64,000 nucleotides of DNA from Candidatus Omnitrophota bacterium (GTDB taxonomy: Bacteria; Omnitrophota; Gorgyraeia; Duberdicusellales; 4484-171): contig JAIPGM010000002.1 in NCBI GenBank assembly GCA_021735655.1, positions 32,001 to 96,000 on the forward strand, given 5' to 3'. Positions 2,414 to 41,757 of this stretch are shown in pieces (position 1 is the first letter of the stretch; each line of letters opens with the position of its first letter). The position numbers were made by a program, and so were the translations under genes. The notes under the pieces are model-generated. The model had not been told where the DNA came from and searched no databases. It worked only from the letters and a program-made list of their open reading frames with translations.

Positions 2414-3013
2414 ATGTCGCAAAGCATTGAGAATAAAGTAGTTAGCAGGATTTATGGTAAGAATAGGGGTTGGGTATTCACTCCAAATCACTTTCTTGAC
2501 CTTGGAAGCCGTACAGCCGTGGCTCAAGCCTTGGGGCGGTTGGCAAAAGCCGGTACTATTCGCCGATTGGCACATGGACTATATGATTATCCTGAGAAAC
2601 ACCCTACGCTGGGCGATCTTCCGCCTAACTATGAGCGGATAGCCCAAGCTTTGGCAGGAAGGGATAGTTTAAAAATTCAGCCATCGGGGGCGTATGCCGC
2701 CAATCTGCTCGGGCTTACTGAGCAGGTTCCTGCAAAGATTGTTTTTCTGACTGACGGCCCTAATCGCAAAGTACAAATAAACAAACAGCAGGTTGTCTTA
2801 AAAAGGACAACTCCTAAAAATATGGCCACTGCCATGCGGGTGAGCGGTCTGGTTATCCAGGCTCTGCGTCATTTAGGCCAAGATCATGTGGATGATAAAA
2901 TAATCGGGATGCTTAAGAAAAGATTATCCAGCGATGACAAGCGTCAGCTTATAAACGACCTTCGTTACGCTCCTGTATGGATAGGAAATATATTTCGGCA
3001 ATTACAAGGATAA
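2414..3013 (+). CDS. abiEi: type IV toxin-antitoxin/abortive infection antitoxin AbiEi
   Basis: 199 aa. N-terminal wHTH (..GLAKAGTIRRLAHGLYDYPE..) and overall similarity to the AbiEi family. It is immediately followed by the AbiEii nucleotidyltransferase. Confidence 0.8.
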   Translation: MSQSIENKVVSRIYGKNRGWVFTPNHFLDLGSRTAVAQALGRLAKAGTIRRLAHGLYDYPEKHPTLGDLPPNYERIAQALAGRDSLKIQPSGAYAANLLGLTEQVPAKIVFLTDGPNRKVQINKQQVVLKRTTPKNMATAMRVSGLVIQALRHLGQDHVDDKIIGMLKKRLSSDDKRQLINDLRYAPVWIGNIFRQLQG

Positions 3014-3020
3014 GAAGCCT

Positions 3021-10070: not shown

Positions 10071-11978
10071 ATGGCAAAAGTAATTGGAATTGATTTAGGG
10101 ACATCTAACTCATCAGCTGCAGTAATGGAGGGTGGCAGGCCAACAATAATTCCATCAGCTGAAGGAGCTGGCGTTGCAAGTGGAAAGGCTTTCCCTTCGG
10201 TAGTTGCCTTTACTAAAGATGGCCAGCGATTGGTTGGTGAACCAGCCAGGAGGCAGGCTTCAGTTAATCCCGAAGGAACAGTCTTGGCGGCCAAAAGAAA
10301 AATTGGAACAAACTTTAAATTCAGCGTTTATGGTAATGAATATACACCGCAGCAGATTTCAGCCTTTATTTTGCAAAAGATAAAGCAAGATGCTGAGAGT
10401 TATCTTGGTGATACGGTAACCGAGGCAGTGGTGACTGTACCAGCCTACTTTAATGATAATCAACGCCAAGCTACTAAAGATGCTGGAAAAATTGCCGGTT
10501 TAGAGGTTTTGCGAATTGTCAATGAGCCTACGGCGGCTTGTCTAGCTTATGGATTGAATAAGGTTGGTAAAGAACTCAAGATCATGGTTTTTGACTTTGG
10601 CGGTGGAACTCTAGATGTAACGGTTATGGAAATGTGGGCTGAAGGGGGCTTTAAAGTTCTCTCAACCTCCGGTGATACTCATCTTGGCGGAACTGACATG
10701 GACAAGGTTTTAATCGACCATATTGCCGAAGATTTTAAGAAACAGTCGGGCATTGATTTACGTAATGACAGTATGGCTATGCAACGTTTACGTGAAGCAG
10801 CTGAAAAGGCAAAGATAGAGCTTTCCAGCACCTTGACTACTGAGATAAATTTACCTTTTATTACTGCTGATCAATCAGGCCCTAAGCATCTTACAATTTC
10901 ACTCAATCGAGCTAAAGTCGAAGAGCTAGTTACGCCAATTATTGATAAGTGTAAGGCTCCGCTTCAGCAGGCTTTAGATGATGCTAAGTTGTCAGGTGGC
11001 GATATTGACAAAATTATAATGGTCGGTGGACCGACTCGGATGCCGATTGTTCAAAAGTTTCTTGAAGATTATGTCGGTAAAAAGATTGAACGGGGTATTG
11101 ATCCGATGGAGTGCGTTTCAATGGGTGCTGCAGTCCAGGCATCAATCATCAAGGGTGATACTAAAGATGTTTTGCTTTTGGATGTTACACCGCTTTCTTT
11201 AGGTATTGAAACTCTAGGCGGAGTATCAACTAAATTAATCGAAAGAAACACAACGATTCCGACTAAGAAGAGCCAGGTTTTTTCAACCGCTGAAAGCAAT
11301 CAGCCGGCAGTTACAATAAGGGTTCTGCAAGGGGAGCGGCCAATGGCTAGTGATAATATTGAGCTTGGTCGGTTTGACTTAGTGGGAATCCCACCGGCAC
11401 CACGCGGAGTGCCCCAGATAGAAGTTACTTTTGATATTGACGCTAACGGAATAGTTCATGTTACCGCCAAAGACAAAGGTACCGGAAAAGAGCAGTCAGT
11501 TCGGATAACTGCCCCGGATAAGTTATCTGAGGCTGATGTTGAAAAAATGGTTAAAGAGGCTGATAAGTATGCCGATGAAGATAAACAACGAAAAGAAGCA
11601 GCCGAGTTAAAGAATAAGGCTGATACTTTAGTTTATTCGACTGAGAAGTCGCTTAAGGACTACGGCGATAAGATTTCTGAAGGTGACAAAACTGATATTC
11701 AGAATAAACTTGATGCTTTAAGGGAGACTTTAAAGTTAAAAGAAGCAACTAAAGAGCAGATTGAAAAAGGCCTTGATGAATTAACTAAGGCTTCTCATAA
11801 GCTAGCTGAACAGGTTTATAAGGCTCAGAGTGCTCAGCAACAAGGGGCTCAAGATGCCGGAGCCGCTGGCCAAGGTCAGGCTGGCCCAGAAGCTAGTCAG
11901 CAACAAGATCCACAAACTGGCTCAAAAGATGATAATGTTGTTGATGCTGAATATAAGGAAGAAGATAACAAGCAGTAA
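10071..11978 (+). CDS. dnaK: molecular chaperone DnaK (Hsp70)
   Basis: [32 protein letters not shown] and other Hsp70 signatures. 635 aa. Confidence 0.97.
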
Positions 11979-16548: not shown

Positions 16549-17800
16549 GCGTAATATTCTTATAAGCTTACCGTTTCTATTAATAACTTCAGTCATTTTA
16601 TCTCTCCATCCCAAAGGGGGACCTCTCTTTTTAATTCCAGCCGCAGTCAGCATTGTGATATTTATAGTTGTCTGCAAGATCCGAACTTTTATTATTTCTC
16701 AGCATCAAGGTGAATTTGAGAATTTTGATGAAAAAATAAATATTTTAAATAAAAGCATCGAAGAGAAAAATAAGATTTTGAACTCGTTTCCTAAAAAAAG
16801 TGAGCGAGCTTCCTTCCTTTTTGATATTTCTAAGAGTTTAATTGAACTAATTGAACTGGAAGAAATTTTTAATTCATTAATTAAAATCCTGGAAAAACTT
16901 TTTCCCGAAGCCGACAGTATTTTGATTTTCAGTTTTGACAAGGAAGGCGGGGCCTTAGAGCTTAAGCACTCTCTGAAACGTAAATTTAATACGATAAAAG
17001 AGAAAAAAGGCAGTAGCTTGGATAACTGGGTATTACATCAAAATCGTTCGCTGTTGATTGAAGATATTACTAAAGATTTTCGTTTCGATGCATCTAAGCT
17101 TACGGCTTATTATGAGCGTCGAGCACATTCATTCGTTTTAAGTCCTTTGTCGGTTGGCCGCAGGTCATTGGGGTTGGTGCGGATTGAAAGCCAAAGGCCA
17201 GGGGAGTTTTCTTTAGACGATTCAAGGCTCCTGCGGAATGTTTGTGATTTGGGCGTAGTGGTTCTGGAGCGTTCAGTTCTTTTTAAAAAAATTAAGGAGT
17301 TAGCCACCAAGGATGCTTTAACCGGACTATTTGTGCGTAGTTATTTTTCAGAGTATTTTTCGAGAGAATTAAAACTTATTCAGCGCCAAAACGGTAGGCT
17401 AGGCCTGATTATGCTTGATATTGATGATTTCAAAAAAATAAACGATACTCATGGTCATGTAGTGGGTGATTTGGTTATAGTGAAATTAGCTGACATTTTG
17501 CAAAAGAGTCTCACTAAAAGATCCGGTATAGTTTCTCGGTTTGGTGGAGAAGAGTTTACATTGCTTTTGCTTGAAATCAGCCTTAAAGAGCTTGTTGCTT
17601 GCGCTGAGGAAATTCGTTATGCAGTCGCGGCAGCCAATTTAGCATTTCGCAGAAAGAAAATTCAGTTTACAGTTTCTTTAGGGGCGGCTCTTTATCCGGA
17701 CAATGCTACAACGCCTACTGGATTAATTGAGGAGGCCGATCGAGCACTCTATAAGGCTAAACGGGAGGGTAAGAACAAGACGTGTTATTCTGGACAGTAA
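16517..17800 (+). CDS. membrane-anchored GAF-GGDEF diguanylate cyclase
   Basis: N-terminal TM, central GAF-like region, and C-terminal GGDEF with an intact RFGGEEF active site. The start is uncertain: the track uses TTG overlapping the upstream stop. Confidence 0.75.
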   Translation: MILQTNVSLYKRNILISLPFLLITSVILSLHPKGGPLFLIPAAVSIVIFIVVCKIRTFIISQHQGEFENFDEKINILNKSIEEKNKILNSFPKKSERASFLFDISKSLIELIELEEIFNSLIKILEKLFPEADSILIFSFDKEGGALELKHSLKRKFNTIKEKKGSSLDNWVLHQNRSLLIEDITKDFRFDASKLTAYYERRAHSFVLSPLSVGRRSLGLVRIESQRPGEFSLDDSRLLRNVCDLGVVVLERSVLFKKIKELATKDALTGLFVRSYFSEYFSRELKLIQRQNGRLGLIMLDIDDFKKINDTHGHVVGDLVIVKLADILQKSLTKRSGIVSRFGGEEFTLLLLEISLKELVACAEEIRYAVAAANLAFRRKKIQFTVSLGAALYPDNATTPTGLIEEADRALYKAKREGKNKTCYSGQ

Positions 17801-18750
17801 TAGCTATTGGGGAAGTAATTTTTTTAATCGAGGCTATTGTTTTTTTAGTTTGGTTCCGTAGTCAGGCTAACAAGAAGCGAGAAAATCTGTCTAAACAGGT
17901 TGCAAGTTTAGAAGCATCCGAATTCCAAATAAGAACAAAACTTGATAACTTGGAATCTATTCTTGCTGAGCGTTTTCTTTTTTATGATATGACCCGCCGG
18001 CTCGCTCCTTTACTTGATAAAAAAGAGCTTTTTGCTAATTTTTTGCAAGAGTTAAGCTATCTTGGTCCGATTGAGACAATGGAATTGTCGACAGAAATAA
18101 TGCCCGAGGAGTACTTGAGGTTTGAACTAGGCAAGGGGGTTAGGGAGGTATTGTATTTAAAGACAAGCTCAAAGAAGGTTGCTGAATATGCTTCTTACTT
18201 TGTAAAGATATTGCGTTTATGTCTTGAGCGTATTCGTCTTTATGATCGATTACAGCAGCTGTCTATTTACGATTCTTTAACTAAGATTTATAATCGTCGC
18301 CATTTCATGCAAAGATTTCAAGAGGAATTTGAACGGGCTAAAAAGTTTAAGCATAATTTGGCATTCCTAATGATTGATATTGATCATTTTAAAAAAGTTA
18401 ATGATACCTATGGTCATTTAGTCGGTGACGTAATCTTAAGAGAGGTTGCTCGTTTGATTAAAAAGAGTACAAGAGGAATAGACTTAGTAGCTCGTTTTGG
18501 CGGAGAGGAGTTCTCGGTAGTTTTGCCGGAGACCGACAAAGGCGGCGCAATTATGCTGGCCGAGCGTATTAATCAACATATTAATCGAGCACCAATTAGT
18601 GCTTTTGACGAAAAAATTATAACAAAGGTAAGCGTTGGGGTTGCCTCTTACCCTGAGAATGCGGTTAATTCTGATATTCTTCTTGAAGTTGCTGATAAGG
18701 CTCTTTATAAGGCTAAAATTTCCGGTCGCAATCGGGTTTCTTGGTTTTAG
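17782..18750 (+). CDS. GGDEF diguanylate cyclase with N-terminal TM helix
   Basis: GGDEF domain with ARFGGEEF and an upstream RxxD (RGID) I-site. GTG start overlapping the previous stop. Confidence 0.75.
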   Translation: MLFWTVIAIGEVIFLIEAIVFLVWFRSQANKKRENLSKQVASLEASEFQIRTKLDNLESILAERFLFYDMTRRLAPLLDKKELFANFLQELSYLGPIETMELSTEIMPEEYLRFELGKGVREVLYLKTSSKKVAEYASYFVKILRLCLERIRLYDRLQQLSIYDSLTKIYNRRHFMQRFQEEFERAKKFKHNLAFLMIDIDHFKKVNDTYGHLVGDVILREVARLIKKSTRGIDLVARFGGEEFSVVLPETDKGGAIMLAERINQHINRAPISAFDEKIITKVSVGVASYPENAVNSDILLEVADKALYKAKISGRNRVSWF

Positions 18751-27135: not shown

Positions 27136-27210
27136 GGCCCCATCGTCTAGTCCGGCCTAGGACACATGGTTCTCAGCCATGAGACACCGGTTCGAATCCG
27201 GTTGGGGCTA
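27136..27210 (+). tRNA. tRNA-Glu (anticodon CUC), no encoded CCA
   Basis: Folded by hand: acceptor GGCCCCA/TGGGGCT (G1-U72 wobble), D-arm GTCT..AGGAC as in tRNA-Glu, anticodon stem CATGG/CCATG with loop TTCTCAG giving anticodon CTC, T-arm ACCGG-TTCGAAT-CCGGT. Confidence 0.85.
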
Positions 27211-27262
27211 CTGTTTTTATTTCTCCCTATTGAATCCCCCCCTGTAGTGGTATAATTTAACT

Positions 27263-27925
27263 ATGAGAAAAGGATTTACCCTAATCGAACTAATAGTGGT
27301 CATTGCAATTATTGCAATTTTAGCTGCCATTATTGCTCCTAATGCTTTTAAAGCTATTGAGAAGGCAAAGATTGCAAAAACTATAGCCGAATTAAGGGTT
27401 TTCAAAACTGCTGCACATTCTTTGTATTCTGATACTGGTCGATGGCCAGGCTCTGGCGGAATTGGACCTATTGCTCAGTGGGTTTATCTTGATAATGGAT
27501 TAATTTGGCCGAGAACCCCTGCTGGTTTAAATAGCAGCTTGTTTGATAATGATGATGGAGTAGGAAATACAATTTCTGGTTGGGACGGACCGTATCTTGA
27601 TCGCCGATCATCTAAATCCGCTTGGGGTGGAACTTATGCTATGTATAAACGTTACAATGGTTTTCCTCAAACTGGATCTAGTGCCGGCGATCTTACTCTT
27701 GTTATTACTAGCATTTGTTATGGGTCACTTAATTCAGTGCTATCTAACAGGAATTGCCCTTTGAGTGAAGAATTAGCGGAGATAATTAATGGTAAAATTG
27801 AAGGCGACAATGATTTACGTTTTGACCAATCAACCGCCGGAAATTTTAGAAAGTTCCTTTGGGCTAACTCGGGTGATACTTGGGAAGGTTTTTATCATTT
27901 CATGATTGGAGAAGACGTTTTATAG
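27263..27925 (+). CDS. GspG-like pseudopilin / type IV pilin paralog 1
   Basis: Class III signal MRKG|FTLIELIVVIAIIAILAAIIAPNAF with Glu5, and GspG-like ..AIEKAK..L..Y..D.GRWP.. plus the WDGPYL motif. A TGGTATAAT -10 ends 7 nt before the ATG with no SD, suggesting a leaderless mRNA. Confidence 0.8.
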   Translation: MRKGFTLIELIVVIAIIAILAAIIAPNAFKAIEKAKIAKTIAELRVFKTAAHSLYSDTGRWPGSGGIGPIAQWVYLDNGLIWPRTPAGLNSSLFDNDDGVGNTISGWDGPYLDRRSSKSAWGGTYAMYKRYNGFPQTGSSAGDLTLVITSICYGSLNSVLSNRNCPLSEELAEIINGKIEGDNDLRFDQSTAGNFRKFLWANSGDTWEGFYHFMIGEDVL

Positions 27926-27938
27926 GGGGAGGCATCCC

Positions 27939-28496
27939 ATGAAAAAATCATTCACTCTAATCGAACTTATAGTAGTCATCGCTATTATAGCTATCCTTGC
28001 CGCAATTATTGCCCCGAATGCTTTTCGGGCTATTGAGAAGGCGAAGGTGGCTCAGGTGGTATCAGATTTAAAGACATTTAAAACAGCTGCTGTAGGTTAT
28101 TATGGGGATACTGGGCAGTGGCCACCAGATGGGGTTAGTTGGTTTACTGATGAAGAGCTGCAGTTTTTCATTACTGGAGTAGGGCAACCAGCAGGCTGGG
28201 ATGGACCCTATTTAGAAAGTTGGCCAAATCCACCTTGGCATTGTGAATTTGTCTATGGTGCTGATACGGTTCATGAAAATTATGATTGGGACCACTGGGT
28301 GGGGTGGTCTTATTGGGGTGTAGTGCCTGCGAATACTGATACTTGCGGTGCAAGTATTTCATGCGTTCCTCAAAAGTCAGCGACAAAGATAGATGTTAGT
28401 TTAGATGACGGTAACCCTTCTTCGGGCAGGGTTCGTTGGGTCAGCTCATATGCCGGTGGTTTCATGAATGCAATTATCATCGAAGGAGGACAGTAA
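27939..28496 (+). CDS. GspG-like pseudopilin paralog 2
   Basis: True start MKKSFTLIEL at 27939 with a GGGGGAGG RBS. The track ORF begins earlier at 27906. Conserved prepilin N-terminus and GWDGPYLE motif, with a divergent Trp-rich C-terminus. Confidence 0.8.
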   Translation: MKKSFTLIELIVVIAIIAILAAIIAPNAFRAIEKAKVAQVVSDLKTFKTAAVGYYGDTGQWPPDGVSWFTDEELQFFITGVGQPAGWDGPYLESWPNPPWHCEFVYGADTVHENYDWDHWVGWSYWGVVPANTDTCGASISCVPQKSATKIDVSLDDGNPSSGRVRWVSSYAGGFMNAIIIEGGQ

Positions 28497-28531
28497 AGGC
28501 CTGATTTGCATTGATAAGAGAAATAACTACT

Positions 28532-29134
28532 ATGAAAAAATCATTTACTCTCATTGAACTAATTGTAGTCATAGCTATCATTGCTATCCTTGCTGCAATC
28601 ATTGCTCCCAATGCCTTTCGTGCCATTGAGAAAGCTAAAATTACAAAAACCATTGCTGATCTAAAAGCCATAAAAACTGCCATTGGGGCTATGTATGCTG
28701 ATACTGGAAAATTTCCCAGCGGCTGTATTGCCTTTACCGTCAATGACCCTGAAGTTAATTTAGATACGGCACAGGCAGGGTTGGTATCCGAACCTCCGGT
28801 TGGAATTTTTACTGGCGCTACCGGCGGCACTTGTGAGTGGACCCAAGCTAATGTCAATTCTTGGGATGGTCCTTACCTTGAAAGCGGGCAAGTAAAGGAT
28901 GTTTGGCATTCAGCATATCATTATGACCCTGATTATTATTATTGCATAAATGGATATTTAAGCCCAGCTGGAGACGGGCCAATAACTAATTGCGGTGACG
29001 CTCCGGTAGCTCAAACTTGTCTAGAGGTATGCGGCGGCGCCTTTAACTGTGGCTTTCCAGTAATACAATCATTTGGCCCTGACAAAAGCGGTTATGGTTG
29101 TGATGATATTATAGTAAAAATGACACTCAATTAG
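28532..29134 (+). CDS. GspG-like pseudopilin paralog 3 (Cys-rich C-terminus)
   Basis: Start MKKSFTLIEL at 28532. WDGPYLE and the C-terminal SFGPDKSGYGCDDIIVK motif are shared with the 43503 paralog. Confidence 0.8.
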   Translation: MKKSFTLIELIVVIAIIAILAAIIAPNAFRAIEKAKITKTIADLKAIKTAIGAMYADTGKFPSGCIAFTVNDPEVNLDTAQAGLVSEPPVGIFTGATGGTCEWTQANVNSWDGPYLESGQVKDVWHSAYHYDPDYYYCINGYLSPAGDGPITNCGDAPVAQTCLEVCGGAFNCGFPVIQSFGPDKSGYGCDDIIVKMTLN

Positions 29135-29282
29135 TGAAAAATAAATAGATAATTAACCACTTTTCCAATCCCAATCAACCCAAAACCGACTATTTCCTTT
29201 CCGTTTGACCACTTTTTACCAAGATGGTTGACAGTTTGGTTGACATCTTACGCTTAACTACTTGAGCCATAATAGTTTTAAT

Positions 29283-29463
29283 AGGACGCATGGTTCTTAG
29301 TCATGAGACACCGGTTCGAACTCGCAATTATTTAGGTTTTTACCTCTCGAGTCCATGAGTACGCCGAAGGCGTACGAATGAATCCTTCCGCCTGCGGACT
29401 AAAGTCCTCGGCGGAATCCCGCCGAATCCGCCAAAGGCAGATGCAGGCGGGAGGTTGGGGCTA
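29283..29463 (+). pseudogene. tRNA remnant (3' two-thirds of the tRNA-Glu-like gene, anticodon loop now TTCTTAG) interrupted by a ~128-nt GC-rich structured insertion
   Basis: 29283-29320 AGGACgCATGGTTCTtAGtCATGAGACACCGGTTCGAA aligns with 27159-27196 of the tRNA-Glu. The tRNA 3' end GGTTGGGGCTA plus similar T-rich downstream sequence reappears at 29453-29477. No matching 5' acceptor strand is present. The intervening 29325-29452 folds into at least three GC hairpins (GTACGCC-GAA-GGCGTAC, TTCCGCC..GGACTAAAGTCC..GGCGGAA, CCCGCC..GGCGGG). Confidence 0.55.
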
Positions 29464-29619
29464 TTTGTTTTCATTTTTTCTTCAGAATTTTAGTAAATCC
29501 CATACGAATTAGTTTTCTATCTTTAAGGATGAGGCCAGGCTATATTTTGAGGTGGCATAAGAGTCAGCTGATGATATAATATGCTTAGTTCTAGAAGCAG
29601 TACATAAAGGGAGTAAAAG

Positions 29620-30543
29620 ATGAAAAAAGTAATCGTTGCGACAACAATACAAAACCCTACAGAAGCTATTGAAAAATTTGATAGTTTGAAGGAATGGACG
29701 CTTATTGTAGTAGGAGACTTAAAAACTCCAGAAAGTTATAAATTAGAAAATGGTATGTATTTCTCTCCCCAGGAGCAAGAAAAATATGATCAAGAGCTTT
29801 CTGATTTAATTGGCTGGAATACCCACGCGAGGAGAAATTTCGGCCATCTATTAGCAAAAGACATGGGTGCGGATGTTATTGCATGTGTGGATGATGACAA
29901 TATTCCGTATAATACATGGGGAAAAGACATTTTTATAGGAAAAGTTGTAGAGGCTAATTACTATGAATCTGACCTCGAGGCTTTTGACCCTGTAGGCGCT
30001 ACTAATCACCCTTACTTATGGCATAGAGGTTTTCCTATTCAGCTAATAAATAAAAGGGATTATAGTAAAAAAATAAAAAAGAAAATAAAAGTAGATATCC
30101 AAGCAGATTTTTGGAACGGTGATCCGGATATAGATGCTATATGCCGAATGATTTATAAATCGGAGGTTAGCTTCGAAGAACAGTATTTTCCTATAGCGTC
30201 TAACAAGCCGTCTCCTTTTAATTCGCAAAATACATTTATTGCGAAAGATGTCCTTCCATATTGTTTTTTTCTTCCACATATTACGCCACTTGGAAGACAG
30301 AGTGATATAGGGATCTCTTATCACTTAGCATCGCTGGGATATAATGTTATATATTGCAAGCCGTCTGTTTATCAGGCTAGAAACACACACAACTTAACTA
30401 TAGATATGGAGGATGAGTTTAAGGGATATATGAGCAATATAGATATCGTAAGAGCTATAGGCAATGGAACGTATAAGAAAGAAGACTTCTGGCCTGAACA
30501 GACATGCGCAGCATATGAGGTTTATCAGAGGAGATTTAAGTGA
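29620..30543 (+). CDS. GT75-like protein (reversibly glycosylated polypeptide / UDP-arabinopyranose mutase family homolog)
   Basis: By-eye alignment with plant RGP1. IVATTIQNP...LIVVGD resembles IVIPTIRN...IIVQDGD. DVIACVDDDNIP resembles YIFTIDDDCF. HRGFPIQL...DFWNGDPDIDA resembles RGYPFSLREGV...GLWLNIPDYDA. RQSDIGISYHLASLGYNV...NTHN resembles RYDDMWAGW..HLGLGVK...SNP. A TATAAT -10 and AAGGGAG RBS lie upstream. The gene is A+T-rich. Confidence 0.45.
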   Translation: MKKVIVATTIQNPTEAIEKFDSLKEWTLIVVGDLKTPESYKLENGMYFSPQEQEKYDQELSDLIGWNTHARRNFGHLLAKDMGADVIACVDDDNIPYNTWGKDIFIGKVVEANYYESDLEAFDPVGATNHPYLWHRGFPIQLINKRDYSKKIKKKIKVDIQADFWNGDPDIDAICRMIYKSEVSFEEQYFPIASNKPSPFNSQNTFIAKDVLPYCFFLPHITPLGRQSDIGISYHLASLGYNVIYCKPSVYQARNTHNLTIDMEDEFKGYMSNIDIVRAIGNGTYKKEDFWPEQTCAAYEVYQRRFK

Positions 30544-31460
30544 AGAATAGCAACGATACAAAAATCAATAATTCACTTTCCGGCATACTTTGTTGTATAA
30601 ATTTCAACGAAGTGCACTACGACAATATAGAATTTTTAAAAGATTTGTATAGCAATTTTGTTGATGTAGTTTTTTACGGGCCAGAGCGGAAGCAGGGGTT
30701 CGAAGTAAATCAATTATGCCACCATCGTGGCTATTTTAGTTATGCAGTGATATTAGACGCAATTAAAAAATTTCCAGATTACAATGGATATATATTTGTT
30801 AATGATGATTGTATCATGAATATATGGCAATTCATAAATAAAGACAAGACTAAAGTATGGTTGCAGCCGTTTCATTCTAAAGTTAATCGCCATGATTATA
30901 AAGAAAGCACATGGTTTTGGCTGAATGAGCCATGCGGTATCTCTGCTTATGGTAAAGCTTTCTTGCAAATCCCGCGTAGATACCGTGAAAGGCTTAAATC
31001 GTCATTTGGGTCTGAAGATGCTGTGATTTGTGGACCTGCTGATTGTTTTTATTTGCCCAAAAGACGGATAAATGATTTTGCTTCCTTGTTTGATATATAT
31101 TTTTCCAACAGGGTGTTTACTGAAATAGCGGTGCCTACTGGCCTATACGCAATCGAAGATAAGGCACAAATTACAGTTTTCAAGGGTCATGACAGAGTGA
31201 CATTTCCTTTGTCATTTATTCCTTATGACCTAAAAGCAAAAATATTCTACAGAGGAGAGTTGGACTTATACCATCCTTTAAAATTGTCTAATTCTAAAAT
31301 GAGATCTATGGTTAAAAATATGTTTAATGTATATCTTTTTCAAAGAAATAAATTTTTTTCAAAAATTTTAAGATTATGCGATTTGCTACGTCCTTTTATT
31401 TGGTTTTGGGCATATATGTATATGATTCAGGGGAGATTTTTGAGAAAGATTCGTTATTGA
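30540..31460 (+). CDS. putative GT-A-fold nucleotide-sugar transferase (hydrophobic-DDx motif YIFVNDDC), unknown family
   Basis: 306 aa. Its start overlaps the stop of the GT75-like gene, indicating an operon. The DxD-like motif is preceded by a beta-strand-like hydrophobic run. No confident family assignment. Confidence 0.3.
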   Translation: MKNSNDTKINNSLSGILCCINFNEVHYDNIEFLKDLYSNFVDVVFYGPERKQGFEVNQLCHHRGYFSYAVILDAIKKFPDYNGYIFVNDDCIMNIWQFINKDKTKVWLQPFHSKVNRHDYKESTWFWLNEPCGISAYGKAFLQIPRRYRERLKSSFGSEDAVICGPADCFYLPKRRINDFASLFDIYFSNRVFTEIAVPTGLYAIEDKAQITVFKGHDRVTFPLSFIPYDLKAKIFYRGELDLYHPLKLSNSKMRSMVKNMFNVYLFQRNKFFSKILRLCDLLRPFIWFWAYMYMIQGRFLRKIRY

Positions 31461-32425: not shown

Positions 32426-32758
32426 TTACCAGCGGTTTAATACCTTTTGCTGGTCTTGAAACTTTTTATTGAGGGATTCTGCGGTATTTTCACTACGTTT
32501 GAGTAATGTCTGATATTCTGAGGAACCGATGTTCTCAGCTGAAGGGTTGGCTTCGTCATTTTTGTTAAAAAAATCTTTCCTGAGATAGAGCTTATTCATG
32601 ATAAGGAGGATGAGAGCGGAGATAATCGTGAAAGTTACAACAATGCTGATTAGGCTAGCAAAACCTTTTTTACCATACATAAGGATAAATTTTGGCTGCA
32701 GCAGGAGGCACTCCACCAACCACGGGAGAGGTAGTAAGCCTTTACCTGCCACAACCAC
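32426..32758 (-). CDS. small membrane protein (possible true start at Met27, 32680)
   Basis: Hydrophobic segment KKGFASLISIVVTFTIISALILLIM is loosely prepilin-like but lacks Glu5. No family recognised. Confidence 0.35.
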   Translation of the reverse strand: MVVAGKGLLPLPWLVECLLLQPKFILMYGKKGFASLISIVVTFTIISALILLIMNKLYLRKDFFNKNDEANPSAENIGSSEYQTLLKRSENTAESLNKKFQDQQKVLNRW

Positions 32759-36592: not shown

Positions 36593-38751
36593 TGATAAAA
36601 AAAGCAGACCTAAAATTAAGGCTAGCTCTAATCGTTGGTTTGGTGGTTTGGAGCTTTTTTTATGTTTTTCCTTTAGAGAAAAAGATAAATCTTGGTCTTG
36701 ATTTAAAAGGTGGTATGTATGTTCTTTTGCGGGCCGATACCTCGGGTCTAGCTACTGATAAGAAGGCTAATGCAATAAGTGCGGCGGTTGAGAAGATCCG
36801 TAACCGAATTGATAGCTTCGGAGTCAAGGAGACTTCGATCCAGGTTCAAGGCTTAAACTCTATTTTAGTTCAGGTTCCCGGTTTAGTTAATCGTGAAATG
36901 GTAGACAAGTTAAAGCAGGTCGGGAAATTGGAGTTTAAAATAGTTGAAGATGATGAAGAAAAAGTTACCAGTGCTTTAGGCGGCGAAGTACCCGAAGGCT
37001 ATGAATTAAAGAAATATGATGATACCCGTCTTTTGCTTAAGCAAGAGGCAGCCTTGGTTGGCTCTGATCTTTCTGAGAGTTTTGTTGGATTTGATTCTTA
37101 TGGATTAGCTGAGGTACGTTTGAAGTTCACTTCAGAAGGTACTAAGGCTTTTGCTGAGGCGACTGAACAAAATGTTGGGGAGCGCTTGGCAATTGTTTTA
37201 GATGGAGTAGTCAAAAGTGCTCCGGTAATCCGTGAACCGATATTGAGCGGTGAAGCGCAGATTTCTGGAGATTTTTCGGTAGATGAAGCCCGATTAATTG
37301 TTTCGGTATTAAACTCTGGTGCGTTGCCTATTCCTTTAACCGTAGAGGAAGAAAGAAGCGTAGGTCCACTTCTTGGTTCTGATTCAATACGTAGAGGGGT
37401 ATCTTCAATTCTTCTTGGGGCGCTTTTAGTAGTTGTTTTTGTAGTTATTTATTATCTTTTTGGCGGCTTTATAACTATTTTTTGTCTTGCTCTAGACTTG
37501 CTATTTATTCTCGGTGGTTTACATCTTTTTAAAGGAACTCTTACCCTTCCCGGTATCGCCGGCATGATTCTAACCTTAGGTATGGCCGTTGACGCCAATG
37601 TTTTAATTTTTGAAAGAATTCGTGAGGAGCTCAGCCTACATAAACCTTTGGGTTTGGCGGTTAAGAATGGTTTTAATAAAGCCAAGCGTACTATAGTTGA
37701 TGCTAACATAACCACCTTGATCGCAGCCTTCTTTTTGTTTTATTATGGAACTGGACCGATAAAGGGTTTTGCTACTACACTTTCTTTAGGTATAGTTGCC
37801 AGTATCTTTACTTCTGTATTTGTCGGAAGAACAATTTTTTCAGTGCTTTTGGATAGACGTTTAAAAAAGTTTCCGATGCTTTCACTTATTGGCTCTCCGA
37901 AGATTAATTTTGTTAAATTAAGAGGTATTTGCAGTATCGCTTCTTTAATCGCTGTATTTTTAGGAATGTTTTATTTTTATTCTAATCAAGATAAGGTTTA
38001 CGGTATCGATTTTGAGGGCGGGCAAGTTCTTGAGTACAAGATTACACCGCCTGCCGACACTGAAGATGTCCGCCAAATATTAAAAGGTAAGGGTTTTGTT
38101 GATTTAGTAATTCAGGAGTTTAGCGATATTCCGGGAGGAGTTATAATTAAGAGTAAGGATGATATCGGCTATGAGCTAGAGAAAACCTTAAAAGACAATT
38201 TTGATCAGGTTGATGAACTTAGAGTCACGACCATTGGTCCGACTGTTGGTAAGATTCTAAGGCAGAAGGCTTATCTGGCGATTTTGCTTTCTCTTTTAGG
38301 GATACTTGTTTATATAGCTTTTCGTTTCAAACACTTTGATTTTGCTTTAGCTGCGGTAATTGCTCTTTTCCACGATGTTTTTATAACTTTGGGTATACTT
38401 TGTTTTGTCGGCTTCAAGGTTGATCTTTTGGTTGTTACTGCTTTACTTACAATCGCCGGTTATTCGATAAACGATACGATTGTAATTTATGATCGAATAC
38501 GTGAAATCGAACCACGCTTTAAGCGAAGCTCATTGGGCGAAGTTATTAATTTAGCCATAAATAGTACCTTGTCCCGAACGATAATCACATCGCTCACTAC
38601 ACTCATGGTGGTTGTGTCGATATATATACTCGGTGGAGAGGCGCTTAAAGGGTTTTCCTTTGCTCTTTTAATCGGAATCGTTGCCGGTACTTACTCTTCG
38701 GTTTATATTGCCTCCCCCTTAGTGCTTCTTTTTAGAAAGACTCGTGCTTGA
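36592..38751 (+). CDS. secDF: fused protein-export membrane protein SecD/SecF
   Basis: 719 aa with two 6-TM bundles and periplasmic domains. The SecD N-half and SecF C-half are fused. Confidence 0.9.
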   Translation: MIKKADLKLRLALIVGLVVWSFFYVFPLEKKINLGLDLKGGMYVLLRADTSGLATDKKANAISAAVEKIRNRIDSFGVKETSIQVQGLNSILVQVPGLVNREMVDKLKQVGKLEFKIVEDDEEKVTSALGGEVPEGYELKKYDDTRLLLKQEAALVGSDLSESFVGFDSYGLAEVRLKFTSEGTKAFAEATEQNVGERLAIVLDGVVKSAPVIREPILSGEAQISGDFSVDEARLIVSVLNSGALPIPLTVEEERSVGPLLGSDSIRRGVSSILLGALLVVVFVVIYYLFGGFITIFCLALDLLFILGGLHLFKGTLTLPGIAGMILTLGMAVDANVLIFERIREELSLHKPLGLAVKNGFNKAKRTIVDANITTLIAAFFLFYYGTGPIKGFATTLSLGIVASIFTSVFVGRTIFSVLLDRRLKKFPMLSLIGSPKINFVKLRGICSIASLIAVFLGMFYFYSNQDKVYGIDFEGGQVLEYKITPPADTEDVRQILKGKGFVDLVIQEFSDIPGGVIIKSKDDIGYELEKTLKDNFDQVDELRVTTIGPTVGKILRQKAYLAILLSLLGILVYIAFRFKHFDFALAAVIALFHDVFITLGILCFVGFKVDLLVVTALLTIAGYSINDTIVIYDRIREIEPRFKRSSLGEVINLAINSTLSRTIITSLTTLMVVVSIYILGGEALKGFSFALLIGIVAGTYSSVYIASPLVLLFRKTRA

Positions 38752-40636
38752 AACATTCAAGATCTATCCTCACAAGCGAATTTCGCTTCAAGAAATAACT
38801 AAAAAACTACTTTCTTTGGGTTATCGACGTTTCGACCAGGTAGCTCAAGAAGGAGATTTTTCTATCCGTGGTGATACCTTAGAGATTTTTCCAGCTAATT
38901 TTAGCTACCCTTTAAGAGTTGAATGGGAATTCGAGACGATTAACAAAATTTTTTCTTTTGATAAGTCTTTTAATAAGAAAATTCTTGATTATGATTTTCT
39001 TTTTTTGATCCCTTGCCTAAAGAAGCGTAAACGCTACATTTCCGAAGATTCGCCAATTTCAGCGGTATTACAAATTAAAAAAGGTGATTACGTAGTTCAT
39101 AGCCGTTATGGGATAGGTGTATTTTGCGGTTTAAATAAGTTAATTGTAAGGAATAAGGAAGATTATTATTTTGAGATTGAATACGAAAATAAAGATAAGC
39201 TTTATGTGTCTAGAGAAGAAGCTCACCTTATTCAGAAATATTCTAATTTTAACTTAAACCGGCCACGGCTCACCCGTCTTGGTAGCCGAGATTGGCCGCG
39301 CCTTAAAGAGAAGGTTGAAAAGGGTATCAAGCATTTTGCTGTATCAATTTTGCGCATGGAGGCTCAAAGAAAAATAATCGGCGGGTTTAAATATGCTGAG
39401 GATGATTCCTGGCAGAAAAAGTTTGAACAGGGTTTTCCTTATCGAGAGACGCTTGATCAAGCTAAAGCCACGATTGATACAAAGAATGATATGCAGCGGA
39501 CTGGTTGTATGGATCGAATAATTTGTGGTGATGTCGGTTATGGTAAAACTGAAGTTGCAATGCGAGCAGCTTTTAAGGCGGCTAGTTGTGGTCGGCAGGT
39601 GGCTTTTTTAGTTCCGACTACAATTCTTGCGTATCAGCATTATATAAATTTAACAAAAAGATTGTCTGGTTTTCCTTTTTACGTTGAAATGCTTTCTCGG
39701 TTTCGTTCAGGCTCCGAGCAAAAAAATATTTTAACTAAATTAAAAGAGGGTAAGATCGATATTATTGTCGGTACTCATCGTCTTTTATCCGGCGATGTCG
39801 ATTTTAAGGATTTGGGTCTTTTGATTATCGATGAGGAGCATAAGTTTGGGGTGACCCATAAGGACAAGATAAAAAAACTGAGAGTGCGTATAGATATTCT
39901 TAGTCTTACCGCAACACCAATACCACGTACTCTTTATATGAGTTTAGTCGGTTTAAAAAATATATCCTTAATAAAAACACCACCTAAACAGCGCTTGGCG
40001 ATTAAAACTGAAATGATATCTTTTAATCCTGAACATTTAAAAGATATAATTGTTCGGGAGGCAAAGCGTGGTGGCCAGGTTTTTCTCATTCATAATCGTA
40101 TCGAAACCATAGATCGCATCGAGAACGCTCTAAGAAAGGTTTTACCTAAAGAGTTAAGGATGGAGGTTATTCATGGAAGGCTTCCTACTAAAGAAATAGA
40201 GGAAGTGATGCTTGAATTTATTAATCAAAAGATAGATTGTTTGCTGTCGACGGCAATCGTTGAATCGGGGATAGATATTCCTACGGCCAATACAATTATT
40301 ATCAACGATGCTTATAGATTTGGTTTGGCTGATTTGCATCAGCTGCGGGGTAGAGTTGGCAGGCATAATGTTCAAGCTTATTGTTATTTGGTTATTCCGC
40401 CTAAACATAGTGTATCTTCTGATGCGATTAAACGTCTTAAGATGATTGAGGAATTTTCTCATCTTGGAGCTGGTTTTGAGATAGCAATGCGAGATTTGGA
40501 GCTTCGAGGTGCCGGAAATATTTTAGGTCGCCAGCAGCACGGATTTATTTGGATGGTTGGTTTTGACCTATATTGTCGAATGCTTAAAAAAGAGATTGAA
40601 TATTTAAAAGAAGCGTTTAAGATAGGTATGAGTTAG
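38744..40636 (+). CDS. mfd: minimal Mfd-like transcription-repair coupling factor (CarD/RID domain + SF2 translocase only)
   Basis: CarD-like RNAP-interacting domain (KGDYVVHSRYGIGVFCGL). Helicase motifs GDVGYGKTEVA, DEEH, and TRG-like ..RGRVGR. At 630 aa it lacks the N-terminal UvrB-homology domains and the C-terminal D7. Confidence 0.7.
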   Translation: MLETFKIYPHKRISLQEITKKLLSLGYRRFDQVAQEGDFSIRGDTLEIFPANFSYPLRVEWEFETINKIFSFDKSFNKKILDYDFLFLIPCLKKRKRYISEDSPISAVLQIKKGDYVVHSRYGIGVFCGLNKLIVRNKEDYYFEIEYENKDKLYVSREEAHLIQKYSNFNLNRPRLTRLGSRDWPRLKEKVEKGIKHFAVSILRMEAQRKIIGGFKYAEDDSWQKKFEQGFPYRETLDQAKATIDTKNDMQRTGCMDRIICGDVGYGKTEVAMRAAFKAASCGRQVAFLVPTTILAYQHYINLTKRLSGFPFYVEMLSRFRSGSEQKNILTKLKEGKIDIIVGTHRLLSGDVDFKDLGLLIIDEEHKFGVTHKDKIKKLRVRIDILSLTATPIPRTLYMSLVGLKNISLIKTPPKQRLAIKTEMISFNPEHLKDIIVREAKRGGQVFLIHNRIETIDRIENALRKVLPKELRMEVIHGRLPTKEIEEVMLEFINQKIDCLLSTAIVESGIDIPTANTIIINDAYRFGLADLHQLRGRVGRHNVQAYCYLVIPPKHSVSSDAIKRLKMIEEFSHLGAGFEIAMRDLELRGAGNILGRQQHGFIWMVGFDLYCRMLKKEIEYLKEAFKIGMS

Positions 40637-40660
40637 ATAATTCGATCTAACATTTTTTAA

Positions 40661-40758
40661 TCCCTCGCAGAAATCCCCGGGCTTTAGCCCGAGGGATGAA
40701 TGCTCTTTTAGGATTTCTGCTCGGGAGGAAGCCTTGGCCTTTAGGCCGGGGAGGCTTC
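40661..40758 (+). repeat. tandem GC-rich palindromic stem-loop units containing GGGC-TTTAG-CCC / GGCC-TTTAG-GCC cores
   Basis: Unit 1: TCCCTCG(40661-67)...GGGCTTTAGCCC...CGAGGGA(40690-96). Unit 2: GAAGCCT(40728-34)..GGCCTTTAGGCC..AGGCTTC(40752-58). A 10-bp inverted repeat GCAGAAATCC (40667-76) / GGATTTCTGC (40711-20) is also present. The element is intergenic between mfd and the surA-like gene. Confidence 0.5.
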
Positions 40759-40833
40759 ACTGCAACTTGAATCTTGAAAAGATTCGTTAGTTGAATTATG
40801 AAAAAATGTTGATCTCATTAAAGGAGGATGATA

Positions 40834-41757
40834 GTGTTTAGAAAAACTAATAAGAAGTATTTAATTCTTGGGTTGGTTATTGGTTCTGTTTGTTTATTTG
40901 GCTTAACTTTAAGAGTAAACGCTGAGGCGGTAGCTAAGATAATCGCTAAGGTCAATAAGCAAGTAATAACCTCTCGAGATTTGGATGAGTATTGCAAGGT
41001 TTTGCAGTTTAAATTAAGTGATTCTCGGGATAATATTCCTTCCGAAGATGTTGAGTTTCGGAAAATAGCTCTTAGTAGGTTAATTGAAGATAAGCTTATT
41101 CTTGATGAGGCAAAAAGAATAAAGATGGAAATCCCTCGGGCTTTGGTTGAGGATCGTCTTAATGAGATTATTAAATCTCATCCTTCGCGTGAGGTTTTTG
41201 AGGAATCTTTAGAAGAACGAGGACTTACAGTTACCAAATTAAAGGAAAAAATAAGAGAGCAGTACTTAATGCGTGAACTTATACAGATGCAGGTAAAGTC
41301 TTCAATTGCTATATCGCCACAAGAGTTAAATAGTTATTACTCTGAGAATAAGAGCCAAATGCTTTCTCCGGCAGGATACATTTTTTATATCGCTACCTCT
41401 AAAGATGAGGGTAGTCTTAATCAGATAGTTGATAAAATTAAAACTGAGGGCATAGCTAAGGCTCTCGGTGACTATCAGGATGAGTTGATAAGGATGGAGT
41501 CGGCTGAAGATGAGTTGAAACCTCAGATAGTCGGCATTCTTGAGAAACTTAAAGGTGGTCAAAGTGAAGTGGCTAAAATGGAAGAGACTTATTATTTAGT
41601 TTACATGGAGAGCAAAATAGACCCTAGAGAGCTTACTCTTTCTGAGGCCCAAGAGGCAATTCGTGGTTATCTTTGGGATCAGAAATTCAAACAAAAATTT
41701 AGTGAGTGGGTTAAAGAGTTGAAAGAGATGTCGGTAATAAAAATTTATAATGAGTAA
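40834..41757 (+). CDS. SurA N-terminal-domain-like periplasmic chaperone (no obvious PPIase domain)
   Basis: Signal peptide and SurA_N-like helical region. The conserved gene order surA-pdxA-ksgA supports the call. GTG 40834 is preferred over ATG 40828 because of its spacing from the GGAGG RBS. Confidence 0.5.
   Translation: MFRKTNKKYLILGLVIGSVCLFGLTLRVNAEAVAKIIAKVNKQVITSRDLDEYCKVLQFKLSDSRDNIPSEDVEFRKIALSRLIEDKLILDEAKRIKMEIPRALVEDRLNEIIKSHPSREVFEESLEERGLTVTKLKEKIREQYLMRELIQMQVKSSIAISPQELNSYYSENKSQMLSPAGYIFYIATSKDEGSLNQIVDKIKTEGIAKALGDYQDELIRMESAEDELKPQIVGILEKLKGGQSEVAKMEETYYLVYMESKIDPRELTLSEAQEAIRGYLWDQKFKQKFSEWVKELKEMSVIKIYNE

Follow-up and report, generated by a model that had tools for sequence, protein, structure and literature searches.

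Rickettsia palindromic elements (RPEs) are palindromic repeats of about 100-150 bp that form stable stem-loops, and we know of no transposase that moves them. They are scattered intergenically and also occur in frame within unrelated housekeeping genes, which have survived their repeated insertion (PMC10969869). Bacterial MITEs, among them Correia, ERIC, BOX, and Nezha, are small, structured, non-coding, and multi-copy, and they are sometimes co-transcribed and occasionally intragenic (PMC10969869). Non-autonomous derivatives of the IS200/IS605 elements are described as having no terminal inverted repeats (TIRs) and no target-site duplications (TSDs) but carrying subterminal imperfect hairpins in the same orientation and a left end at a fixed sequence, with an orientation that matches the lagging-strand template (PMC5027513; PMC3201880). 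Sequences of the REP/BIME/REPIN type (RAYT, Y1) are many-copy GC-rich imperfect palindromes often found downstream of genes, and it has been proposed that an HUH enzyme handles REPs in trans as folded single strands (PMC3333891, PMC3733652). A REP is defined as 20-40 nt long with a GTAG or CGTC tag (PMC3733652).

Here we analyze a GC-rich element at 40656-40761 of a 64-kb stretch of DNA that we call the window, where it lies intergenically between an mfd-like gene (38744-40636) and a surA-like gene, both confirmed by Pfam, in the gene string yajC-secDF-mfd-surA-pdxA-ksgA. The segment 40661-40760, with TTTAA on its left, is probably one copy of a non-autonomous mobile element, possibly of the single-strand type that is mobilized in trans. 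It falls into a well-known general class of selfish DNA and is not a locus-specific regulator, and the mobile repeat family to which it belongs, which is dispersed among genomes of the Omnitrophota type, was previously unlisted; a literature search by name and by sequence string returned no description of it.

Anatomy and insertion of the mfd-surA copy

A first-pass annotation of this region had placed two adjacent stem-loops between mfd and the surA-like gene, had noted a 10-bp inverted repeat that bridges them, and had described them as GC-rich islands in an AT-rich background. All of this is present in the DNA, since the two stem-loops are found at 40661-40696 and 40728-40758, the bridging repeat (GCAGAAATCC/GGATTTCTGC) falls within two 16-nt arms, 40661-76 and 40711-26, that show 88% complementarity, and the element is one of the two intergenic GC islands in the window, whose GC content is 38%. 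The features of the locus are the following.

40644-40815, no strand: window-specific frame, made of the 13-nt inverted repeat AACATTTTTTAAT (40649-61) / ATGAAAAAATGTT (40798-810) and, outside it, the direct repeat GATCT (40644-48 and 40811-15)
40656-40660, + strand: TTTAA, immediately 5′ of the element; probably the insertion target and not mobile DNA
40661-40760, + strand: putative mobile unit, TCCCTCG...GGCTTCAC; 100 nt here, canonical 99 nt
40661-40676, + strand: conserved 5′ leader TCCCTCGCAGAAATCC, the 5′ strand of the outer stem P1, which pairs with 40711-40726
40661-40696, + strand: stem-loop 1, TCCCTCG..GGGCTTTAGCCC..CGAGGGA, read directly in the sequence
40677-40694, + strand: hairpin 1 from folding, CCGGGC-TTTA-GCCCGAGG; family helices 2 and 3
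40695-40710, + strand: central spacer, which starts with conserved GATGAATG and continues with a variable part
40711-40726, + strand: P1 3′ strand GGATTTCTGCTCGGGA, including conserved CTGCTCGGGA
40728-40758, + strand: hairpin 2, GAAGCCTTGGCC-TTTA-GGCCGGGGAGGCTTC; 8 bp, a bulge on the 3′ side, 4 bp
40728-40758, + strand: stem-loop 2, GAAGCCT..GGCCTTTAGGCC..AGGCTTC, read directly in the sequence
40759-40761, + strand: right terminus AC, then a conserved T; sharp family boundary
40762-40827, + strand: AT-rich segment that is not common to the family, with a small hairpin (40769-40785) and a TTGAAT direct repeat
40820-40827, + strand: Shine-Dalgarno sequence AAGGAGGA, 5′ of the probable surA start GTG 40834

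The surA start at GTG 40834 was inferred from protein P0001 (307 aa) and from locus L003. Hairpins 1 and 2 of the window copy form a direct repeat of 26 nt with 73% identity, and at the start of the central spacer, columns G40-T46 of the family alignment (A1) are nearly invariant. The segment folds well both as RNA (z = -3.6 on the + strand, z = -5.0 on the - strand) and as DNA (z = -4.5), and none of the shuffled sequences folded as well as the window element. Searched with the family covariance model, the 64-kb window has one copy, at 40656-40761 (121 bits, E = 6e-27).

The mfd-surA spacer is 197 nt in the window genome. Among relatives it is about 28 nt in L003 and about 30 nt in L001, and in L007 the two genes overlap; the covariance model found no copy of the element in the 20-kb syntenic loci L003 and L007. 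Because the spacer of close relatives is only about 0-30 nt, the window copy is an insertion. When genome contigs were searched with SurA, a single distant relative was recovered. A Logan contig from the same organism terminates inside the element, at 40704, and we gave this break little weight as a sign of repetition because another contig from that sample also breaks, within mfd, without any visible cause. The copy at mfd-surA is most likely a passenger, carried on the operon transcript as a stable stem-loop. Our analysis turned up no evidence that the element regulates mfd or surA, and such regulation need not be invoked to explain the locus, whose odd GC-rich island is now accounted for.

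A dispersed repeat family with sharp ends

A six-frame peptide query of the element led to a ProC protein (P0034) that carries a copy. The copy inside proC in L014 is 84% identical to the window over 109 nt (E = 2e-25), and the two share 29 identical nucleotides at the 5′ leader. With the exact 18-mer of the leader as the search probe, a scan of metagenomes gave 81 loci, and about 57 of these were confirmed as true copies by nhmmer and the covariance model, which also found further copies without the 18-mer. Family members are about 100-106 nt long and consist of the near-invariant start TTTAA-TCCCTCGCAGAAATCC, two GC-rich hairpins, and the end CA[A/C] followed by T, with the TTTA loops of both hairpins on the same strand, which is the top strand in most copies. 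The leader AATCCCTCGCAGAAATCC is the most conserved part of the family and the hairpin tips vary and covary, but both the leader and the AA of TTTAA look more conserved than they are, because the family was ascertained with that exact 18-mer. Beyond the window genome, the hosts named as Omnitrophota are only L066 and, via its closest named ProC homolog, L014.

The element could also be read as unique to this locus, for example as a terminator of this lineage or a remnant of foreign DNA, with all resemblances due to chance. The single copy in 64 kb and the chance frequency of its short palindrome fit this reading, but full-length matches at E = 1e-17 to 1e-28 occur in dozens of unrelated contigs, several contigs hold more than one copy (three in 14 kb in L047, two each in L071 and L083), and there are copies inside genes. 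The proC match in L014 and the family-wide matches refute the reading, and we give it practically no credence. What the searches recover is a dispersed family. Viral contigs scanned with three sub-sequences of the element gave 0 matches, and phage and plasmid BLAST gave nothing meaningful. A search of representative proteins with concatenated frames gave 7 matches only, since sequences of such length are too short for that library's E-values.

The first-pass annotation had suspected a dispersed REP/MITE-like family and had taken a GGNC-TTTAG-GNCC core as its mark. The family exists, in the form of the roughly 100-nt homologues in metagenomes, which are what makes the window feature significant, but this core does not define it. 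The 13-nt motif GGNCTTTAGGNCC has 2 matches in the window at one mismatch or fewer where 0.83 are expected, and 23 of 100 shuffles equal that number. A genome-wide search for this short palindrome would have been uninformative. The core had also been seen in an insert within a tRNA remnant, where GGACTAAAGTCC does lie at 29396-29407 as reported:

29321-29452, - strand: insert B, GC-rich and structured, inside the T-loop of a tRNA-Glu-like 3′ remnant

Matches to tRNA-Glu flank insert B at 29302-20 and 29453-63, the 18-mer GGACTTTAGTCCGCAGGC belongs to it, and it folds as a four-way junction (z = -6.0). The proposed kinship with the window element (A) is weak. Direct alignment of A with insert B is at shuffle level, the family HMM misses the insert, BLAST gives E = 2.1, and the covariance model reaches 12.3 bits on the predicted strand (E = 0.6), whereas a gapped local alignment with the hairpin-2 module of one subfamily beats 1000 of 1000 shuffles. 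This suggests that insert B may be, at best, a distant relative of the hairpin-2 module.

The boundaries of the family are sharp, at TTT/AATCCC on the left and CA[AC]/T on the right. TTT occupies positions -3 to -1 in 49-52 of the 54 unique copies, with position -4 and beyond random, and CA[A/C] is followed by T in 40 of 47, with the flank beyond random again. L014, L096, and other copies diverge from the window directly 3′ of CACT. A filled and an empty ProC differ by exactly 32 codons, only 96 nt being extra, and TTAAAAAAC (L-K-N) is native in ProC. This one cross-species comparison of a filled and an empty site thus gives moderate support to TTTAA being native target DNA. One nucleotide (T) is ambiguous at both ProC junctions. 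Another placement of the junction, in which native GTGAAG corresponds to the 3′ CTTCAC, was rejected, by argument only, on the ground that the subfamilies differ in step at the 3′ end and in the 5′ arm of hairpin 2, so that the two covary.

Classical MITEs are defined by TIRs together with TSDs, and our first reading of the locus was of that type: a cut-and-paste MITE moved by a DDE transposase, with a unit of 162 nt (40649-40810), 13-nt TIRs, and a 5-bp duplication, GATCT (40644-48 and 40811-15). Among the 35 inverted-repeat pairs of such quality in the window, this is the sole pair with identical 5-nt flanks, where shuffles give 0.03 per window, and the whole 162 nt is missing from relatives. 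However, this frame is not a family feature. More than 50 copies end sharply at CA[AC]T and have nothing in common with 40762-40810 of the window, and the family's own TTTAAT supplies half of the left arm of the window repeat. Across 39 full copies, no direct repeat was enriched over permuted flanks at any of the boundary offsets tried (-4 to +6 and -7 to +4, k = 2-5). The ends of the GATTCAAT subfamily are weakly inverted-repeat-like, but two of the three 3′-end subfamilies have no TIRs, as nothing in the GGCTCCACT and GGCTTCACT subfamilies answers to the left end TTTAATCCCTCG in inverted orientation, and the hairpins are oriented directly and not invertedly. A half copy (L058) beside an IS481-like DDE gene would also suit a DDE element. 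We demoted the 162-nt reading because the family unit ends at CACT without duplication, and we now regard it as very unlikely. The 13-nt inverted repeat and GATCT around the window copy are not explained by our best model, in which the mobile unit is 40661-40760.

Orientation, folding, and copies inside genes

Most of the copies seen are intergenic, and they lie mostly 3′ of a gene on the same strand, with 42 in the orientation of the upstream gene and 9 opposite to it. The top strand of the element is the G-rich strand in 40 of 48 contigs, although gene direction and GC skew coincide in these genomes, so that these counts do not separate a transcription-linked cause from a replication-linked one. 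The window agrees with the bias, having positive skew and its copy on the + strand.

Copies that interrupt a domain in frame occur in ProC, QueA, a radical-SAM/DUF6873 protein, and a histidine phosphatase (His_Phos_1), and of the few verified intragenic copies, two share the orientation of the gene and two oppose it. The length is a multiple of three in 33 of 48 unique copies, which argues for life inside coding DNA, and four frames are usually open. In a predicted structure of ProC, the insert is a low-confidence loop (pLDDT 31-58) within a confident fold (mean 86).

The family structure is conserved with covariation. Helix 1 is 93% paired and helices 2 and 3 are 90-96% paired; 87.8% of cells are paired versus 40-56% when the partners are slid, and 25 pairs carry double changes versus 10.6 in shuffles. 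Hairpin 1 shows some compensatory changes, among them one in L014 from GGGC/GCCC to GGGT/ACCC, and the strongest covariation in the family is in hairpin 2, where one pair is CG (24) or UA (18) and another is AU (17), CG (13), GC (6), or UA (4). The base 5′ of hairpin 2 is also associated, in two states, with the terminal dinucleotide, an association that in itself does not establish guide/cleavage-site pairing.

Strong and significant folding, a structure conserved with covariation, and a position mostly 3′ of same-strand genes are also what a functional structured RNA family could present, whether as an intercistronic mRNA stabilizer or 3′-end barrier, a partial terminator, or a small RNA, with its copies reflecting repeated recruitment. 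REP-type hairpins stabilize upstream mRNA (PMC3733652), and the first-pass annotation had allowed for a protein-binding or RNA-structure motif at this locus and had proposed an Rfam scan. That scan gave no match, either for the whole window at the gathering threshold or for both islands at E up to 10, the best scores being HgcC at 9.6 bits (threshold 50) and SNORD19B at 15.8 bits, both noise. Neither hairpin is followed by a U-tract; hairpin 2 runs into ACTGCAACTTG, which has no T-run and thus does not make an intrinsic terminator, and a promoter and terminator scan of the region found neither. A:C mismatches (89) are at least as frequent as G:T wobbles (75), whereas an RNA helix under purifying selection would show the reverse, and from this we conclude that single copies decay neutrally. 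The multiple-of-three lengths point to coding DNA instead. Given that no Rfam family matches, that copies sit in frame and in both orientations within conserved enzymes, and that close relatives have no element at their mfd-surA junction, we do not favor a functional motif here and consider it improbable.

Possible mobilization and comparison with known systems

On this reading, the window copy inserted into an original mfd-surA spacer of about 20 nt, and other family members have inserted both between genes and, in frame, within them. An enzyme acting in trans would recognize the folded hairpins on one DNA strand and would cut 3′ of a fixed TTTAA(T) at the left and 3′ of CA[A/C] at the right. 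The excised strand would then go back in 3′ of another TTTAA(T), leaving neither inverted terminal repeats nor a target duplication. This logic would be that of the "peel and paste" of IS200/IS605 elements and their REP/RAYT relatives, and as regards the class of enzyme and the single-strand route, we offer it as a possible account and not yet a probable one. Regex screens, a weak test that covered fragments of about 740 kb in all and motifs of Y1-HUH, TnpB, integrase, and RT, showed no transposase beside the copies or in the window, and no full-length autonomous element with the family ends was seen in the sequences examined. The half copy L058, which adjoins the IS481-like DDE gene and was considered as a candidate autonomous element, is truncated and joined to a piece of an ABC-2 permease.

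A further reading, which we think rather doubtful, is that the family represents a distinct class of single-strand-mobilized micro-element adapted to coding sequence, whose mobilizing enzyme has so far not been recognized. The multiple-of-three lengths extend across many size classes with four of six frames open, and the AT-rich target TTTAA(T) is common in Leu-Lys and Phe-Asn codons, which would suit such a class. The family would then be one that occurs across deeply diverged Omnitrophota. If this reading is correct, something like the RPEs would exist outside Rickettsia and would provide conserved enzymes with new surface loops.

With this family, the pattern of selfish DNA inside protein genes, best known from Rickettsia, is extended to an uncultivated phylum. 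For the annotation of Omnitrophota and related MAGs, the repeat can break assemblies, seed spurious small ORFs, and add about 32-46 residues to real proteins. A compact, sharply bounded, many-copy family is also a test case for which enzyme is responsible and for whether the inserts are neutral loops or have been co-opted.

The family differs from the classical MITEs in that neither TIRs nor TSDs are among its features, and only the window-specific 13-nt repeat and GATCT around the 162-nt segment recall them. It resembles the IS200/IS605 group of palindrome-associated transposable elements (IS608/ISDra2) in that it has no TIRs and no target duplication, carries same-orientation subterminal hairpins at both ends, and has its left end directly 3′ of a fixed short target sequence. 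Unlike that group, TnpA, TnpB, and a full-length parent were not found (regex screens on fragments), and hairpin 2 of the family stops only 2-3 nt short of the right end, whereas in IS608 the hairpin reportedly lies farther from it. Like REPs, the family consists of GC-rich imperfect palindromes in many copies, but its unit is about 100 nt long with a 16-nt non-palindromic leader, TCCCTCGCAGAAATCC, and has no GTAG/CGTC tag. REPINs pair REPs in inverted orientation, whereas the family hairpins are directly oriented with their loops on the same strand, and REPs are extragenic by definition, whereas family copies also lie inside the ProC, QueA, DUF6873, and His_Phos_1 genes.

The comparison with RPEs is one of description and not of sequence. 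RPE hosts are obligate intracellular alphaproteobacteria, whereas the family is hosted by Omnitrophota, which are free-living or epibiotic, and it is mostly intergenic; a TTTAA-adjacent left end and a strand bias are, to our knowledge, not features of RPEs. The likeness to RPEs lies in the in-frame copies within those same four genes, the multiple-of-three lengths with several open frames, and a ProC insert predicted to be a surface loop. Thus, what characterizes RPEs, the recurrent in-frame insertion of a palindromic repeat into unrelated protein genes, is found in this family as well.

Locus and family of the mfd-surA element

The first-pass annotation described two adjacent GC-rich stem-loops at 40655-40765, and on direct checking its sequence matches exactly. 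The features discussed here are the following.

38744-40636, mfd-like gene with Pfam UvrB_inter, CarD_TRCF_RID, DEAD and Helicase_C domains
40656-40761, plus strand, double GC-rich hairpin between mfd and surA (the window copy)
40649-40810, outer repeat frame around the window copy
29321-29452, minus strand, insert B, a GC-rich insert of ~132 nt within the T-loop of a tRNA-Glu-like remnant

Past the element the gene order is surA-like, then pdxA and ksgA (Pfam). The window is 38% GC with positive GC skew throughout, and when rRNA, tRNA and coding islands are set aside, the intergenic stretches above 65% GC number only two, the mfd-surA element and 29340-29462. A repeat finder recovered both stem-loops, the inverted repeat said to bridge them (as a 16-nt pair, TCCCTCGCAGAAATCC / GGATTTCTGCTCGGGA) and a 26-nt direct repeat between hairpins 1 and 2 with 73% identity. 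The element region folds well above shuffles as RNA on both strands and as DNA. The short palindrome GGNC-TTTAG-GNCC, put forward as a shared core motif, is not over-represented in a window search; the Rfam scan that had been suggested gave no match for the element, and no terminator or promoter consensus was detected at it. The mfd-like protein has the same length, only 630 aa, as its orthologues in the related loci L003, L004 and L007, and Pfam (E <= 0.001) reported no TRCF C-terminal domain for it; the product in this lineage appears to be a shortened form of Mfd. Close to the window's left end, at 956-1018, is a fluoride riboswitch (Rfam RF01734, 62.7 bits).

Peptides from all-frame translations of the two GC islands were concatenated and searched against protein databases of called ORFs from billions of contigs. 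The only match was P0034, a pyrroline-5-carboxylate reductase (ProC) with a 32-residue stretch matching one element frame. Its DNA, locus L014, holds a copy 84% identical to the window's over 109 nt (E = 2e-25), with compensatory changes in hairpins 1 and 2 and an identical 5′ block of 29 nt. An 18-mer from this block, AATCCCTCGCAGAAATCC, served as family probe; it matched no viral contigs and 81 metagenome loci, where inspection, an nhmmer profile and a covariance model identified true copies at ~57, and the remaining loci were rejected as chance matches within GC-rich genes. Extra copies without the exact 18-mer lie on the same contigs (three in 14 kb in L047, two each in L071 and L083), and the sample is biased by the probe. 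Host contigs have 34-51% GC; the L066 host is named Ca. Omnitrophica, and the closest named relative of the L014 ProC is Ca. Omnitrophota. The family spans deep divergence, because SecDF of the L069 host is only 48% identical to that of the window organism. It is absent from the organism's near relatives, and the window holds exactly one copy (covariance model, all filters off). Rfam, phage, plasmid and viral sequences gave no match to the family, and the literature turned up no paper containing its sequence and no account of repeats like these in Omnitrophota. The dispersed element family hinted at in the first-pass annotation is borne out by the ~57 loci with true copies, and we regard it as very probable that the window element is a copy of a dispersed mobile repeat.

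Family anatomy and the insertion between mfd and surA

The consensus begins with TTTAA, followed by TCCCTCGCAGAAATCC and hairpin 1 (CCGGGC-TTTA-GCCCGnGG), and continues with GATGAATG, a variable spacer, TTTCTGCTCGGGAGG, hairpin 2 (12 nt - TTTA - 14 nt, with a 2-nt bulge on the 3′ side), A[A/C] and T. Three subfamilies are distinct in hairpin 2 and the matching 3′ end (GAATC...GATTCAAT, GGAGC...GCTCCACT and GAAGC...GCTTCACT), and the window copy belongs to the last. Both boundaries are sharp: on the left, 49-52 of the 54 unique copies have TTT at -3..-1 and the sequence farther out is random, and on the right T comes after the end in 40/47 copies, with random sequence thereafter. TTTA occupies both hairpin loops on one strand, so the hairpins are direct rather than inverted repeats. 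The proposed structure is 87.8% paired, versus 40-56% with the 3′ partners slid, and both-side changes occur in 25 pairs versus 10.6 in shuffles, with covariation mostly in hairpin 2. G:T wobbles (75) are not in excess of A:C mismatches (89), and therefore individual copies seem to derive from structured master copies and to degrade by neutral change, without RNA-level selection on each. Short forms in three loci (L043, L087, L091) reflect recombination between hairpins 1 and 2. Many copies carry a nested second mini-element of ~45-65 nt, in either orientation, in the hairpin 1 loop (L022 1130-1280; L029 1926-2049; L038 420-593; also L055, L064, L066, L069, L076 and L084), containing CCCTCGAC...GCTCGGGATGG, an echo of the main element's P1 motif (the outer stem), and this suggests that the hairpin loops are themselves insertion targets.

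Syntenic loci of relatives were obtained through SurA homologues, which also place the window organism in Candidatus Omnitrophica; one of them (P0001, on an NCBI MAG contig) is 100% identical to the window SurA. The mfd-surA spacer is 197 nt in the window, ~28 nt in L003 (SurA 58% and SecDF 86% similarity to the window) and ~30 nt in L001, and in L007 the genes overlap with no spacer; the extra DNA is thus lineage-specific. The same organism is also represented in an independent Logan assembly, where one contig includes the element's right half and terminates within the element; a second Logan contig covers the other GC island (29340-29462). Because the co-directional gene string is tightly packed in relatives, the window copy is, judging from this arrangement, almost certainly co-transcribed with mfd and surA. 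The copy lacks a U-tract, and the surA Shine-Dalgarno and GTG start (40820-40836) are undamaged 3′ of it. Our default reading is a neutral passenger with no sign of a regulatory role; a possible candidate function, by analogy with REP elements, is an influence on the 3′ stability of the mfd message.

The repeat finder also detected an outer 13-nt inverted repeat (12/13 matching) that brackets 40649-40810, with GATCT identical on both outer sides (40644-40815), enclosing 49 nt of AT-rich sequence in addition to the family copy. This frame is the sole such configuration in the window and statistically unusual, and it is not a family feature. Possibly a small palindromic insert was already present and received the window copy; the composite may instead have been moved once by another enzyme, or the frame may be coincidence.

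The tRNA-Glu remnant and its insert

The tRNA remnant named in the first-pass annotation is real, in that its segments 29302-29320 and 29453-29463 correspond to the T-arm and 3′ end of tRNA-Glu(CUC) at 27136-27211, and the kinship proposed between its insert and the family is weak. Insert B had no match to the family nhmmer profile, E = 2.1 by BLAST, and 12.3 bits (E = 0.6, minus strand) with the covariance model. Against CGGGAT..GGACTTTAGTCCG..GGA.GATTCA from the GATTCAAT subfamily, a local alignment with gaps scored 16, whereas shuffles gave 8.3 +/- 1.4 with 0/1000 reaching 16. On the minus strand, insert B folds into a four-way junction with a UUCG-capped hairpin, GUACGCC-UUCG-GCGUAC (z = -6.0), and the searches made found no relatives. 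We take it to be an orphan insert separate from the family, in which a decayed hairpin-2 module may be present.

The remnant (29283-29465) is a copy of the 3′ two-thirds of tRNA-Glu, and in its anticodon loop CTC has changed to CTT. Together with the intact tRNA-Glu ~2.1 kb upstream, it flanks three prepilin-type (N_methyl/T2SSG) genes, and two unannotated genes (29620-31460) follow. In L003 the tRNA directly adjoins the PilZ gene, so 27136-31460 (roughly 4.5 kb) looks like a tRNA-associated variable island. A GC-rich block, TTGGCTGCAGCAGGAGGCACTCCACCAACCACGGGAGAGG (32692-32734), lies between the PilZ gene and hisF and is kept in L003 (2244-2285) and L007 (2017-2061); the beginning of a small minus-strand ORF (32426-32758) without a Pfam match overlaps this block, which had no convincing Rfam match.

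Copies inside genes, proposed target site and known systems

Several copies lie within open reading frames that pass through them unbroken, and the Pfam results show the host proteins to be real and interrupted. In the L014 ProC, F420_oxidored profile positions 1-94 are stretched across residues 6-124; in QueA of L069, profile positions 1-322 are spread over residues 9-387; the DUF6873 domain of a radical-SAM/DUF6873 protein (L030) is in two pieces; and a histidine phosphatase (L091) holds a 13-residue short form. ProC without the insert is 276 aa versus 308 aa for P0034, the difference being one clean 32-residue block in the alignment. In the AlphaFold model of P0034 (mean pLDDT 86), insert residues ~41-72 (pLDDT 31-58) are the sole disordered part, and the insert is predicted to form a surface excursion of the Rossmann domain. 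The length from AATCCC to CA[AC]T is divisible by three in 33/48 unique copies, across many size classes, and usually four of six frames per copy are open.

A 217-aa ORF starts within the copy at L051 279-384 (MREKVFFNPSQKSPGF...), so an element can give a protein its N-terminus or simulate one, a hazard for annotation. At L058 1-1771, a left-half copy adjoining an IS481-like DDE transposase gene is fused with what is left, at the 3′ end, of an ABC-2-type permease gene, to which it possibly gives a start codon; this looks like a local rearrangement. On L014, murG, a PNP_UDP_1 gene and EPSP synthase (2974-3977, 10931-11790, 17264-18573) are each split into two adjacent ORFs with no family copy at any break, which suggests frameshifts or assembly errors.

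In L014 the consensus covers 103 nt and the additional DNA is only 96 nt, so a few consensus bases are native. With a slash marking each junction, the gene strand reads GAGAAA/GTGAAG...GAGGGA/TTAAAAAAC, and the homologue L097 reads GATAAG/CTGAAGAAC at the ProC site, encoding K/LKN. The target would be the constant TTTAA (L-K codons) and the mobile unit TCCCTCG...CA[AC], with one T ambiguous at the left and right junctions. An alternative ProC junction with the 3′ CTTCAC native was rejected, since across subfamilies this end and the 5′ arm of hairpin 2 change together, which places the end in the element.

[quoted passage not shown] Like them, the family has a fixed short sequence 5′ of its left end, no terminal inverted repeats in two of three subfamilies, no target-site duplication (no flanking direct repeat was enriched at any offset tested) and same-sense subterminal hairpins; its strand bias would be a further point of likeness. 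The top strand is the G-rich strand in 40/48 contigs and the element is co-directional with the upstream gene in 42/51 cases, counts in which GC skew and gene direction are confounded; the window copy is on the plus strand, where skew is positive. A screen of family-bearing loci and the window found no Y1 transposase, TnpB or parent element. Given the confounded bias, this negative screen and the probe-biased sample, we advance an HUH single-strand route of mobilisation only tentatively. In kind, the family is a small non-autonomous palindromic mobile element, a kind already known. Its points of interest are IS200/IS605-like end rules without a visible enzyme and, outside Rickettsia, an in-frame, multiple-of-three lifestyle inside protein genes like that described for Rickettsia palindromic elements (PMC10969869).
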